Positions 40,163 to 62,349 of a stretch of 64,000 nucleotides of DNA are shown here, piece by piece. Source of the DNA: Bispira polyomma. Lineage: Eukaryota. A program made the position numbers and the translations under genes. Within the stretch, counting starts at the first letter, position 1. Each line of letters starts with the position of its first letter. The notes under the pieces were generated by a model. It was not told where the DNA came from. It searched no databases and saw only the letters and a program-made list of their open reading frames with translations. Where the stretch lies: contig OZ287755.1 of the NCBI GenBank assembly GCA_965649765.1, forward strand, positions 5,208,001 through 5,272,000, read 5' to 3'.

Positions 40163-41222
40163 TAGCATTTTATGTCCCAGAAACATAGGTTATTACAATA
40201 GCAAGCTTTAAAGTGCACATATGAGTTTATTGGCAAGCTTTAAAAATGGTCTATGATATATAATTGTATATGCAACCGAAATATCTAAAATGTTTTAAAA
40301 CAGATTTTCAAAATGTGTTTTATTATTTATGAATGCTGTTATTTTTATGTAAGTTAAATTTTTCACACGGAAAATAGAGTTTGGATCAAATGTAGGAAGG
40401 AGAAAGAAGGAAGAACCTCTTCGCCCTGCTTATCTTAATAAAGGCAGATAAATTCAGATTTACTGGTAATTATGCAAGTTATCAAGCATGGATCATTATT
40501 ATATTAAATGTTGAGGCAATTTTGTCAATAAACAACTGATTACACTCTTGATGCACTCTTATTTACATTAACTTTCATCTGCTACTTTCACCTAGTGGAG
40601 TTGTCTTAGACACCAAGATGCTATGTCTGGTAGGGATTTCTCGTATAAATGAGGTATGCATTGGCTGAGCTGATTAGCTGATGCTTTCCTTAAGTCCTAA
40701 ACATAGTGGCTGACAAAATAACCATGGGAAGATTGATCAAAATGGTGTCATCTCCTTTAGTAACTTTAAAAGGTGGTATTATAAAATATTACTGCATACT
40801 CATACACATAATTGCTCTGTAAAACATAATCATGTAACAGCTATTTTAACTAAGTTGATGTGGTCTTTGCAGTACACAGTTGAATTGAGAATTGAACAAT
40901 AATGTATTATATATTATACATGAACTCGTTAAGGGTTAGAGAATGGGATCCATATATTGTTAGAGCATTTGACAGTTTATTTCCTTCATAAACTGTCATT
41001 ACATGCTATATCAATTGCATTGTTCTGTATTTTACATTTTAATGTGCATTACTGATGCCAGACATCTTCTAAAAATAACAAAAACATAATTAGTTAACAA
41101 ATTTTAATATACCAAAAAGATAGCCAGGTAATAAGACAGGATGTCAGGTGTACAGTCATGAAATTAAGAGGGAGATAAGCAAGATTGAAAATAAGTGTTA
41201 AGCTTTCTCCGAAACTCTTGTG

Positions 41223-41449
41223 AGTAGTAGACCGGTATCGCCGGTAAACACCCCGGTTGGCTACGATAGACCCCGCGCTTTGCTTAATAGACCTCCCTAT
41301 CTGCTATGGTAGACCCTGCGCTTTGCTCAGACAGAAGTTAAGAAGTCAAAAGCTGCAGTCAATTATTTATGGTAAACCCAGCGCTCTGCTCGGTAGACAC
41401 CCCCTTCAGCTATGATTAACCCCTCTTTCTAGAATTATGCTAAACGTTT
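41223..41449 (+). repeat. Polinton left TIR
   Basis: Reverse complement of 62032-62258, with about 7 mismatches by manual count. Confidence 0.95.
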
Positions 41450-41860
41450 ACCCGGTTGGCTACGGTAGACCCCGTGCTTTGCTGAGACAGAAGTCAAAAA
41501 GTTAAAAGTCACAGTAAACATTTTAAATTTTCAAAAGAAGTAATATTGATCTCGAGTTCATTCACTTTGTAGTGTAGAAGTCGGGAAGTCACACTGAAAA
41601 AGGTAACTCTGCTCAGAATACTCAAGAACTCACTTCAAAAAGTCAAGAAGTCACAATATTGGTAATGAGTTTCTTCACTTTGTAGTGTAGAAGTCGGGAA
41701 GTCACACTAAAAACGGTAACTCTGCTCAGAATACTCAAGAATTCACTTCAAAAAGTCAAGAAGTTGAGAAGTCACAGTAAACGCTTTAAATTTTTTAACT
41801 TATTTGTAGTGTAGAAGTCGGGAAGTCAAAGTGGAAACGGTAAACCCTGCTAAATGTTCA
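41450..41860 (+). repeat. Left subterminal repeat array
   Basis: ~113-bp unit at 41561 and 41674 and a partial third copy at ~41803; many AAGTCAAGAAGT-type motifs. Confidence 0.8.
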
Positions 41861-42048
41861 GCAAAGTTAAGGAGACAATAATATTAAATCATCCTTTATA
41901 ATTCTATAACCTCAAGGTTTTAAATTATTGTGTATAGCCTTGAGGAGTTACAATACCCTGACATTTTGCATTGAAATATACCTTGGGGATCAAATGTTGA
42001 CAGCATAAAGGTATAACCTGACTTATCTAGTCAACAAATATTGTAATA

Positions 42049-42474
42049 ATGGACCAATCTGATAGTGTTAAAGAACAGGGTTTTACCAGTGGATTTTCTC
42101 TTTGTTCCAGTGCTTCTTCAGGCAAAAGTACTGACACAGAAGATTGTAGCGGATTTCGTTGTCACAGTTCAAGTACAAAGAAATCTCCTGGATTCTGTTT
42201 TACATACGAGACTCCAACCGAATATTATCATTTTTATGATAATAGAATCAAAACATTTAGGTTTTGGCCTAAAAGTCATCCTGTTAGACCTGAACAGTTA
42301 GCAGAAGCTGGGTTGTATTATGTTGGAAAAGGTGATCACTGTAAGTGTGCTTGGTGTAATGTAGTGTTATACTCTTGGGATGCGTTTGAGGATGTATTCT
42401 ACGAGCACAGACGTCATTCAGCTGGAAGTTGTACTTTTTTGAAATATTTGTTTCCTTCTCAAGAAAAAGTTTGA
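42049..42474 (+). CDS. Single-BIR-domain (inhibitor-of-apoptosis-like) protein
   Basis: R..TF..WP...P..LAEAGLYY.G.GD..KCAWC-x16-H-x7-C BIR signature; intact 141-aa ORF; no RING domain. Confidence 0.92.
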   Translation: MDQSDSVKEQGFTSGFSLCSSASSGKSTDTEDCSGFRCHSSSTKKSPGFCFTYETPTEYYHFYDNRIKTFRFWPKSHPVRPEQLAEAGLYYVGKGDHCKCAWCNVVLYSWDAFEDVFYEHRRHSAGSCTFLKYLFPSQEKV

Positions 42475-42482
42475 CTAACAAA

Positions 42483-59015: not shown

Positions 59016-59576
59016 TATAGGTGAGTATGTATGTATGTATGCAATGTTTATTGATAATCAGTTATGAACTCCAAACTTAATGCATTCCACAAATAAATAA
59101 GACATAAATTCATCCACAAATTTATTCAAAGAACAAATCATGTACAACGTGATATAAGCCTATAATCAATCATTAATACTAAATTGGTTAAAAGTTTATT
59201 ACAAATATGATATAAATCACTAAATCAATCATTAATGCTAATCGGTTGATATGCAGACTACTATATGTAACATTATGAAGAGTACTATTTATAGTTCATT
59301 AATATAGTTCCTTAATAAAAGAAGAAAAAAGCAGTAAATGTTTTAAACGTTTCAACACCACCACCAAAAAAAAAAAAAACCCAACAAAATGCTAATCAGT
59401 TAAAATATGTAGACTACTATATATGTCACATTATTAAGAGTACTATTTATTGTTCATTAATAAAAGAGAAAAACAGTAAATGTTTTACACGTTTCAACAC
59501 CACCACCAAAAAAAAAAAACAAAGAAAAAGCCCAACAAATCCTATTAAACTGTCTTTAACACAACATCCATTTGGT

Positions 59577-60858
59577 TTAAAACCTATTCAAAAAGGCTCT
59601 GAGGCTTTGAGCAAATAGTTCAATATCTTCAAAGAGAAGAAGAAATCCTTTATGTTGGACAGGAATGTCCTGACCCTTGTAATTTTTGTGGAAATGGCGC
59701 ACAGAAACATAGGGAAAGTTGGTTGTGACAGTTGCTCGGATACCATCACCCAACTCCAGCATCATTGACACTCGTCTGTCATCACGAGCTCTCTGAACCG
59801 CTGCAGTTAACTCTGATAGGTTATTTAAGAGAATTTCCAGATGTTCCTGGTACAATCGGATAGCATCTGTCCTGTAACGCACAAGAAGAGTTGTCTCTCC
59901 TTCATCATAATCTCTTTGTAGACTAAGGTCATCGTTAATCCTTTCCACGAAAGTGCTAAACACAAATTGAATATTTTTTTGTAATATCTTTTAATCATTA
60001 CTAGATTGTATATAAACATATATTGCATTATAAGTTATATAGACCAACAGTATATAAGTATTAATTATATAGAAATATACATATATTGCTAGATTGTATA
60101 TATTGTATTGCTATTTATATAGACCAACAGTGTATATGTATTAATTATATAGAAAATATACATAGTCACTCTGTGCTAGTTGGATGAATTAATACTACAT
60201 ATATATCCTTACCTTGTTGGTGTAGTACTTGACACTGTCGTAGATTGACAGGGTTGTGGTTCCTCTTGTATATTGCAGGCGCCAGTGGTCAGTCTGGTTG
60301 GTGGTTCGATAGCTTCTGCCATCCTCCCTAATAGATGAACCGCAGGTGTCTTCCCTCTTCCTTTTGGTTTAGTCATTTTTCCCTTTTTAGAAGGAGGCTT
60401 TAGAGCCGTAAAAGACTCTACTAACGTCAAACCTGAGTCAGAGTCCTCCTCTTCCTCCTCAGAATAATCATTATCAAAGAGGGAGCTGTCAAAATTAACA
60501 TTTTCTTATGTTAGCTATTTACATTATAATTTACCAACTGATTGATATTATATATAAAATCCCAACTATTTTGTAATGTCTAATGTTTGTGAATGTTATA
60601 GATATCATATGTCCACATATAGTATATGTTGTATATACGGTGTTCATATATTATATAATACACCTTTGTTTGGTTGTAGTTGTAGTAATGTATATTTATG
60701 TATATCACTGAAATATTCACCAATATATATGTGAAAACATTACAAGAATATCTCAATCACCCCTCAAAAATAAGACAACAAACTATTACCTTTTTGGTTT
60801 TTTTCCACCTTTCCTATTGTTAGAGTTATCTTTCCCGTCATCATTATTTTTTCTTTTC
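59577..60858 (-). CDS. Multi-exon gene ending in a PC4-like domain (exons 60858-60790, 60485-60213, 59955-59577; further 5' micro-exons likely)
   Basis: Phase-2 GT-AG junctions join KRKNNDD...KKPK, SSLFDNDYSEEEEEDSDS...TTPT and STFVERIND...LELGDGIRATV...PYVSVRHF...P..HKGFLL in one open frame. Confidence 0.68.
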
Positions 60859-61569
60859 CTAAAATATTAACACCCTAAATTAGAATAGTAAATGATGAAT
60901 TAATTCACATTGTATCTATACTCACCCCTTATGTTAATCGTTCAAAATAGATGAATCCTAGAATACTTACATTTAAACTCTTATCCTCTAACTGCATATA
61001 GATAACACAATAACACAGAATTGTTGATAATTTATAAATAAATTATCTCAATATTAGTTAAATCATTCAATCATAATGCCAAACTAGAAAAATAGTAGAA
61101 TACTTACATTGAAGCCATAGTCCTGTATTAATTAATAAACACACAATATCACTCCTTGGTTGTTTTAATTACTTCAACACAATTGTGTACAGATGTTAGC
61201 AACACTGAAGACATGAGAAATACTACAACCTTTTATAATAAATATTTTCAATAGAACTGAATAGACCCCATTTATTCGCCCATAAGTTAGTATGTTACAG
61301 TAGAAACCCCTTGAAAGTACTTTACCCTTTACAACTCAATGTTACATGATTTAACCTAAAGATACCTTCAAAAACAGATTTGTATTGTTGGAATTATATA
61401 ATTTTGACATTTAGAGAGAGAGGTCTATGTTCAATGTGAAGTAAACCTTGATCTGGGGTTAGAGCTTAATCTAAGGTAAATCTATAGAATTTGAGCTTAA
61501 TCTGAGGTGAATTTGTAGAATTTGACATTAGCGGAGGTCTGGCTACAAGGTTTGGGTTCATTTAACTTT

Positions 61570-62031
61570 AAGATATTGACTCTTATTGACTCCGTAAAAC
61601 TGAAATCTCGACTTCTACCCAGTTTTCACTGTGACTTCTTGACTTCCAAACTTATGCTAGAAGATAAAAATTCACACCAAATCCTTCTTCTGTGACTTGT
61701 TGACGTCTTACACTTTGTTTACTGAAATTTCTTGTGGAAGGCAAAAACCTTTAAATGGTTTAAAACGTTTACACAAAATTCTTGACTTCTTGACTTCTTG
61801 GGTAAGCATACAGTAAACCCTTCAATGACTCTTGACTTTTCAACTTTTACAAAAAAAATCCAGAGGTATCGAGTAGAGCTTTGGGTTTACCACTTACTGA
61901 GCAAAGCGTGTGGTTTAATAAAACAAGATTTAAAGCATTCACAGTGACTTATTGACTTCTTGACTTAGGTAAGCAGATGTGTAAACGTTTAGCATAATTC
62001 TTGACTTCTTGACTTAGGTAAGCAGATGTGG
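61570..62031 (-). repeat. Right subterminal repeat array
   Basis: Repeated TTGACTTCTTGACTT motifs (reverse complement of the left motifs) and a ~51-bp tandem duplication next to the TIR. Confidence 0.8.
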
Positions 62032-62258
62032 AAACGTTTAGCATAATTCTAGAAAGAGGGGTTTATCATAGCTGAAGGGGGTGTCTACCGAGCAGAGCGC
62101 TGGGTTTACCAAAAATAATTGACTGCAGCTTTTGACTTCTTAACTTCTGTCTGAGCAAAGCGCGAGGTCTACCATAGCAGATAGGGAGGTCTATTAAGCA
62201 AAGCGTGGGGTCTATCGTAGCCAACCGGGGTGTCTACCGGCAATACCGGTCTACTACT
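62032..62258 (-). repeat. Polinton right TIR
   Basis: Ends ...ACCGGTCTACTACT, followed by the TSD CTTGTG. Confidence 0.95.
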
Positions 62259-62349
62259 CTTGTGTTTGTAGTGAGCTAAGCTCAACTGGGAGACTATTTC
62301 ATAATATAAGGGCAATAGATCCTGCACTCTGGGTGGGTTTTACACAAGA

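Follow-up and report, generated by a model that had tools for sequence, protein, structure and literature searches.

What occupies an 8-kb tract with few open reading frames (ORFs) at one end of an otherwise densely packed mobile element, and does it belong to that element? The question is raised by a 64,000-nucleotide stretch of DNA from Bispira polyomma (contig OZ287755.1 of assembly GCA_965649765.1, positions 5,208,001 to 5,272,000 of the forward strand), referred to here as the window, in which a Polinton of 21,036 bp spans positions 41223 to 62258. The best explanation, and one that we consider probable, is an integrated, inactive Polinton (a provirus of the adintovirus type) with a long-resident accessory arm of spliced genes. 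What is new here is the size of the arm and a family of membrane proteins with miniature leucine-rich repeat (LRR) domains, that family, with its conserved intron, being the best lead.

A single insertion with matched ends

A sequence-only reading of the window had reported a perfect 6-bp target-site duplication (TSD), terminal inverted repeats (TIRs) of about 97% identity, and no obvious nested transposable element, and closer analysis bore out each of these. The TSD is CTTGTG on both sides (Table 1), the termini read AGTAGT...ACTACT, and the TIR pair differs by 7 substitutions in 227 bp with no gaps (96.9% identity). Both the 6-bp duplication and the (AGT)2 end of the TIRs mark membership in the group; (AGT)2 is the end motif listed for Mavericks, with (AG)3 as the alternative, in the available text of PMC8097293, which, like the other papers cited below, is represented here by part of its text. 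When the element interior was compared with the rest of the window by self-BLAST, no match of at least 30 nt was found except microsatellite-like (TA)n, and an Rfam scan gave 0 hits; this check was made without a repeat library, and small insertions could escape it.

The left flank (41019 to 41214) and the right flank (62262 to 62371), searched separately, align consecutively to an older repeat at 7895 to 7567, the left-flank alignment scoring 102 where 200 shuffles reached at most 46. Since the flanks are contiguous on one older repeat, the whole 21 kb is a single insertion. The spacing in the paralogous repeat is 8 nt, midway between that for one target copy (5 nt) and that for two (11 nt), and therefore this repeat cannot tell one from two copies. 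The Polinton is younger than the repeat that it interrupts and is itself uninterrupted.

The right arm resolves into spliced gene models

ATG-initiated ORFs of at least 70 amino acids cover 85% of the core (43.3 to 53.2 kb) versus 15% of the right arm (53.2 to 61.3 kb). The two-part architecture proposed earlier thus survives in its compact core and ORF-poor arm, and a third part has to be added, an intronless left arm of 1.9 kb that carries a BIR gene. As had also been proposed, the right arm resolves into spliced genes: four models, genes A to D, with 8 GT-AG introns and about 2.55 kb of modeled coding sequence (31% of the arm). For this copy, ORF-only annotation does miss accessory genes (15% ORF cover against about 31% modeled coding); to call the omission systematic goes beyond what one element can say. 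The models form two convergent pairs, A (+) with B (-) and C (+) with D (-), and AATAAA lies downstream of each stop, in gene B immediately after it. The GC content is mostly 0.36 to 0.48 in exons versus 0.21 to 0.30 in introns, the short second exon of gene B standing at 0.24. In 8/8 introns the modeled donor is the best site within 40 nt, as is the acceptor in 6/8, and with the two better-scoring acceptors, which lie +21 and -6 nt away, all 8 junctions remain in frame. It is very probable that the arm genes are spliced.

Genes A and C encode candidate mini-LRR membrane proteins

The predicted gene C product consists of a signal peptide, a mini-LRR domain of about 90 residues, a Ser/Thr stalk, a transmembrane helix, and a basic tail. 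Hydropathy reaches 1.8 at the N terminus and 2.6 in exon 4, and the stalk exons contain 51% and 57% S/T/P in the modeled phase versus 11 to 32% in the other phases. The signal peptide, the Cys-capped LRR domain, and the single membrane helix are the features of extracellular LRR type I proteins. The domain was predicted to fold with a pLDDT (the score predicted for the local distance difference test) of 91.9, and a Foldseek search with it gave no match below an E value of 0.001. Most of the structure matches listed for it are LRR proteins, the best at a Z of 7.8 (LRIM1). An in-frame stop appears at the start of exon 3 when the best acceptor is used. Two further observations concern the same gene. 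Positions 58578 to 58669, within intron 3, hold a degenerate duplicate of the exon 3 end and donor region that is 80 to 84% identical to 58431 to 58535, and a strong donor at 59021, 6 nt past the stop, suggests an intron in the 3' untranslated region or an alternative ending.

Exon 1 of gene C was searched against 1.84 billion representatives. Of the 16 hits obtained, 14 are short; the two long many-repeat hits (P0207 and P0219) were excluded from the alignment. Twelve of the 14 short relatives lose similarity at the same CPG-like position, one diverges earlier, and one ends earlier. Mean identity is 0.37 up to that position and 0.14 past it, and in 12/12 the residue there and its successor would fit a phase-1 GT donor. 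This shared end point is the best evidence for the gene models and supports them independently. The short relatives resemble read-throughs of exon 1 in a family whose intron is conserved. They also look like decaying multicopy sequences, to judge by pairs such as P0210 and P0212, which are 92% identical over 52 amino acids and then diverge abruptly; P0220 ends early relative to P0214.

The predicted gene A product has a similar protein layout in fewer exons, with an LRRNT-like ectodomain (LRRNT E value of 4.9e-4, below the cutoff), a hydrophobic segment taken as membrane spanning from the sequence only, and a basic tail. Its hydrophobic N-terminal stretch begins upstream of the first in-frame ATG. 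Gene A matches the gene C family profile (hhalign E value of 6.9e-5, probability of 63%) and is the second best of 1390 window fragments for that profile (E value of 0.005). A direct BLASTP comparison of A and C is weak (E value of 0.03), and the link appears only with the profile. The A and C products, 23% identical and encoded in different exon layouts, appear to be deeply diverged paralogues, both of them type I membrane proteins of the mini-LRR kind.

Genes B and D

Gene B has strong splice sites and matches no family. A hairpin with 46-bp arms (91% complementary) lies at 55656 to 55770, just upstream of the gene B acceptor, with no target duplication seen. The gene D protein has an acidic and basic N-terminal part and a C-terminal part with a PC4/Pur-like fold, the latter assigned at low confidence from a poor model that gave a Z of 6.3 to Pur-alpha and of 5.2 and 4.8 to PC4 homologues. 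It had no PC4 hit in the Pfam scans, which covered 31 ORFs and exons, and it does not align with the PC4-like ORF of the left arm. Upstream of gene D exon 2, donor-like sites at 60925, 60970, and 61107 (-), two of them in duplicated context, are possible alternative first exons.

Origin of the arm

We judge it likely that the arm is native to the lineage of the element. Four genes are packed into 8 kb, gene A abuts PolB head to head without a spacer, no host repeats are visible in the arm despite a repeat-rich neighborhood, A and C are old internal paralogues, and the relatives of gene C look broken. The strongest rival treats the arm as a recent capture of host DNA, made by this copy or by its immediate lineage; its genes would then be fast-evolving host genes of an ordinary kind that kept their native introns. 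Host-derived intron-bearing cargo has indeed been reported in nematode Mavericks, in the available text of 10.1101/2022.07.12.499685. The LRR look-alikes of gene C are eukaryotic. Moreover, none of 8 arm-exon queries matched in 13 other Polinton loci, and the gene C family profile found nothing better than an E value of 0.6 among 1735 fragments of the 13 Polinton-bearing contigs; these loci are, however, distant (27 to 50% PolB identity) and mostly short. Recent capture also fits poorly with the packing described above, with the deep divergence and differing exon layouts of A and C, and with relatives that look like broken multicopy sequences, and we consider it unlikely.

Several further points tell against an arm of long-resident spliced genes. 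The models were predicted from the genomic sequence of one copy, and the sets searched contain no sister copy. The ranking of the splice sites supports the models short of proof, since the exons had been chosen by eye before a splice-site matrix was applied to them and the rank test is therefore not independent; the frame test is weak for two very short exons. The arm is not enriched in strong splice-like sites relative to host DNA, and the dinucleotide signature, at a distance of 84 from the core and 79 from host DNA, is uninformative on arm origin. The relatives of gene C may be host genes. Fold Z scores below 8 can reflect common arrangements. The gene D model is poor (pLDDT of 52, Z at most 6.7), and sequence searches with its exon 3 gave no relative.

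The element went in as a single unit, duplicating 6 bp, and its core and arm have since gathered breaks. On the favored explanation of a provirus with a resident spliced arm, the rve integrase, as family knowledge suggests, would have made the insertion. Active relatives, again from family knowledge, would replicate with a protein-primed PolB and may use the ATPase, protease, and capsid proteins to package their DNA. Host polymerase II would transcribe the right arm, most likely an accessory region that has long resided in the element lineage, and the host spliceosome would process the transcripts. The A and C products may sit at the surface as mini-LRR glycoproteins and engage ligands or receptors of the host, as an immune decoy or to exclude further infection; such a host-modulating surface function is possible, and we propose it with some reserve. 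Gene D could supply a PC4-like single-stranded-DNA-binding or coactivator protein, the left-arm BIR protein may block apoptosis, and the NADAR domain on PolB may counter ADP-ribosylation.

Decay and age of the copy

Judged from its reading frames, this Polinton copy is inactive. All five hallmark genes, those for the ATPase, integrase, capsid, protease, and PolB, are broken, with a total of 10 frame changes and 3 nonsense codons. Compared with full-length relatives, PolB has 5 frame changes. Three nonsense codons lie where the alignment is good (2.8 are expected from the TIR divergence), another stretch is shifted locally and holds 3 stops, and near 52560 about 130 codons are absent versus four relatives. 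The available text of PMC8097293 calls a Maverick intact when its core ORFs are unbroken, and these are not. The description of the element as complete accordingly fits its ends and gene set and fails for its genes. Suspected lesions in the arm number about 2, the gene C exon 3 stop and the gene A hydrophobic stretch that starts before the ATG, versus 4.1 expected at the core rate (P = 0.22). The count is in line with the core rate, so there is no sign of the host preserving the arm.

The copy had also been placed among the younger insertions of the neighborhood, which is not shown. The TIR divergence of 3.1% (95% interval, 1.2 to 6.3%) is not significantly different from that of the long terminal repeat (LTR) pair of a neighboring Gypsy-like element (7/227 versus 21/441 mismatches, the latter with 6 gaps; Fisher P = 0.42), and the copy is decayed. 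A young or intact element whose breaks are mostly sequencing or assembly errors is, in our view, very unlikely. Three of the 10 frame changes adjoin single-base runs of at least 7 (background 3.8%, P = 0.005), so slippage or assembly error may account for some of them, and frame changes outnumber nonsense codons 10:3. However, 7 of the 10 lie away from long runs, and errors of this kind fit neither the well-aligned nonsense codons and the absent stretch of PolB nor TIRs that differ by substitutions and no gaps. We give hardly any credence to the reading of the arm as decayed noncoding filler with chance exon chains, to which the lack of an excess of strong splice sites, the lack of relatives for B and D, and two ambiguous gene C acceptors might point, and which is already largely refuted for A and C by the donor position conserved in relatives, the in-frame junctions, and a coherent signal-LRR-stalk-membrane-tail architecture with a confident fold.

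Core and left-arm genes

The plus-strand genes from BIR through the protease face the minus-strand PolB gene (Table 1). For comparison we used Polinton-type PolB loci L001 to L013, which lie on contigs of several bacterial genome bins and are probably eukaryotic contamination. One of them, L010, has a near-complete core and a BIR-RING gene beside tandem repeats, and a BIR gene is thus also present in a distant Polinton locus. The ATPase and protease genes, both broken, align over their full length with relatives in other Polinton loci, and the L002 ATPase has a weak Pox_A32 match. L002 and L006 carry, in the corresponding position, relatives of the second small ORF after the ATPase. The integrase aligns along that of L010 and has a chromodomain, with PF00665 at an E value of 3e-6 on one fragment, just below the cutoff. 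The next ORF we take to be a putative minor capsid gene from its position and the gene order of such elements. At 131 amino acids versus 276 in L010 it is about half as long and matches only the two ends of the L010 protein, and it may be a natural short form or a deletion.

The putative major capsid label rests on gene position, on 86 relatives (many of 423 to 436 amino acids, the best 65% identical), and on a subthreshold double-jelly-roll match in a relative. A direct sequence search of the ORF for that fold gave no hit, whereas its L010 relative (E value of 2.6e-49 to the window ORF) matches DJR-like_dom at 0.006 and 1 of 31 aligned members does so at 0.036, both below the cutoff.

PolB has 1023 relatives and matches PF03175 at an E value of 2.9e-6, above the cutoff, and its VSR-like stretch matches MTES_1575 at 1.7e-4, below the cutoff. 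A NADAR domain occupies its C terminus (48513 to 49000, -; E value of 1.7e-9). In a quick tree built from 55 of the 121 rows, made without reference pPolB2 or labeled class sequences, the unbroken central stretch of the window PolB groups with six proteins, five of them NADAR fused (SH-aLRT of 96). NADAR is thus found in 5 of its 6 nearest relatives, plus a few outside that group. The named relatives (Mytilus, Tegillarca, Holothuria, and others) are marine invertebrates and fall outside the group. No OTU domain, a criterion for the Alpha and Beta classes of adintoviruses, was matched in the Pfam scans, and the PolB N terminus carries zinc fingers and a deletion. Adenovirus-like spliced leaders on the core genes were considered and rejected. 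Acceptor scores were mostly no higher than the median of 744 control ATGs, and an acceptor above 4 bits was found upstream of 2 of 10 left-arm and core starts versus 27% of control ATGs.

Table 1. Features of the Polinton, by position in the window
Feature	Position	Strand	Details
Left TSD	41217..41222	.	CTTGTG
Left TIR	41223..41449	+	227 bp, AGTAGT start
Left subterminal repeats	41450..41851	.	113-bp tandem unit; short motifs also at right end
Single-BIR (IAP-like) gene	42049..42474	+	Intronless, 141 aa; Pfam BIR E 3.5e-18
Weak PC4-like ORF	42483..43076	+	ORF 42483-42818, then stop, then 85 further codons in frame; perhaps a single broken gene; subthreshold Pfam PC4 match, E 0.016
Packaging ATPase	43359..43986	+	1 frame change; tblastn with L002 and L006 ATPases; P-loop hits
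Two small ORFs	44037..44614	+	Conserved positions after ATPase
rve integrase	44722..45868	+	C-terminal chromodomain; 2 frame changes
Putative minor capsid protein	45865..46260	+	131 aa
Small basic ORF	46268..46525	+	Precedes capsid gene
Putative major capsid protein	46625..47900	+	1 frame change near 47650
Adenain-like maturation protease	47897..48344	+	1 frame change; Peptidase_C5 E 0.016
Protein-primed PolB	48513..53200	-	N-terminal C2H2 fingers, VSR-like insert, C-terminal NADAR; start not fixed
Gene A (model)	53184..54704	+	Exons 53217-53695, 53913-54062, 54491-54704 (phases 2, 2); 5' end uncertain
Gene B (model)	55339..55613	-	Exons 55613-55464, 55389-55339; 66 aa
Gene C (model)	57275..59015	+	Exons 57275-57599, 57787 (or 57766)-57996, 58359 (or 58365)-58472, 58840-59015 (phases 1, 1, 1)
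Gene D (model)	59577..61118	-	Exons 61118-61108, 60485-60213, 59955-59577 (phases 2, 2); 220 aa
Right TIR	62032..62258	-	ACTACT end
Right TSD	62259..62264	.	CTTGTG

Neighboring elements

The Gypsy-like LTR element lies at 29143 to 37271 of the window and has reverse transcriptase (RT), RNase H, and integrase hits. Its 31.1- to 31.8-kb portion, which matches 10.2 to 10.5 kb and 18.8 kb, may be a nested piece. A decayed element at 11300 to 18900, presumably DIRS-like, has on its minus strand RT-like ORFs and a phage-integrase SAM-like domain and is interrupted by a long interspersed nuclear element (LINE) at about 13.8 to 16.8 kb.

Relation to known elements and implications

The window element shares with Polintons and Mavericks a 6-bp TSD, (AGT)2 TIR ends, and genes for PolB, rve integrase, ATPase, protease, and capsid, as well as two modules pointing to the center, accessory regions on both sides, and a size within the 12.7 to 24.6 kb given in the available text of PMC8097293. 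It departs from them in a PolB that ends in NADAR and in its five broken hallmark genes. Intact vertebrate elements, according to the same text, have two accessory regions and no introns in their genes, in contrast to the 8 introns modeled here in the right arm. Adintoviruses belong to the class Polintoviricetes, order Amphintovirales. Their accessory genes include IAP, shared with the window element, PLA2X, gasdermin, and others, and LRR membrane proteins are not listed in the part of the main text of PMC8502044 available.

An intronless core joined to intron-bearing cargo is already a known architecture. Nematode Mavericks (wasp/krma) are described, in the available text of 10.1101/2022.07.12.499685, as having an intronless core and a 2- to 5-kb region of intron-containing cargo, and the window element likewise has a terminal region with intron-containing genes. 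Its arm differs in measuring 8 kb, in lying on the PolB side, and in holding four genes, including two for mini-LRR membrane proteins; set against the nematode cargo region, it is as AT rich as the core (GC content of 0.318 versus 0.319). VSR inserts occur in pPolB2 Polintons of molluscs and marine nematodes (10.1101/2023.08.22.554363, available text). The window PolB may share with these a VSR-like restriction-fold stretch (a weak match), and its named relatives are from marine invertebrates, whereas it stands apart from all named rows in the tree made without reference pPolB2. With short LRR surface proteins (GPIb-beta/GPIX, VLR, LRIM1, and the Trk N terminus) the mini-LRR domain shares a Cys-capped LRR fold (Z of 5.7 to 7.8), and profile searches hit FLRT2 and a VLR weakly. 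The domain has about 90 residues, about two repeats, and 8 to 16% identity to them, with no family assignment, and function is not transferable.

Polinton gene inventories have mostly been built from long ORFs, and vertebrate elements have been described as intronless. In the available text of a large Polinton survey (10.1101/2025.04.19.649669), introns were not considered, and the available parts of 10.64898/2026.10.13.758929 and PMC12220804 hold nothing on spliceosomal accessory genes. In the literature searched, which took in few subscription papers and not Repbase, we came upon no description of mini-LRR membrane proteins carried by Polintons.

The element, although an inactive copy, extends spliced arms to a second animal setting and brings a cargo family that is new. 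More speculatively, there may be a marine-invertebrate Polinton lineage with its own spliced host-interaction region, encoding an undescribed mini-LRR glycoprotein family whose first intron has been kept at about 30 to 45% protein identity, so that these would be long-standing element genes and not passing cargo. Adenovirus E3 offers a comparable role for such a region. If multigene spliced arms are indeed stable in invertebrate Polintons, the host-interaction toolkit of these elements has been undercounted, and spliced host-interaction regions would be invisible to intron-blind surveys. Mini-LRR surface proteins would then be testable evidence on the viral lifestyle of the elements.

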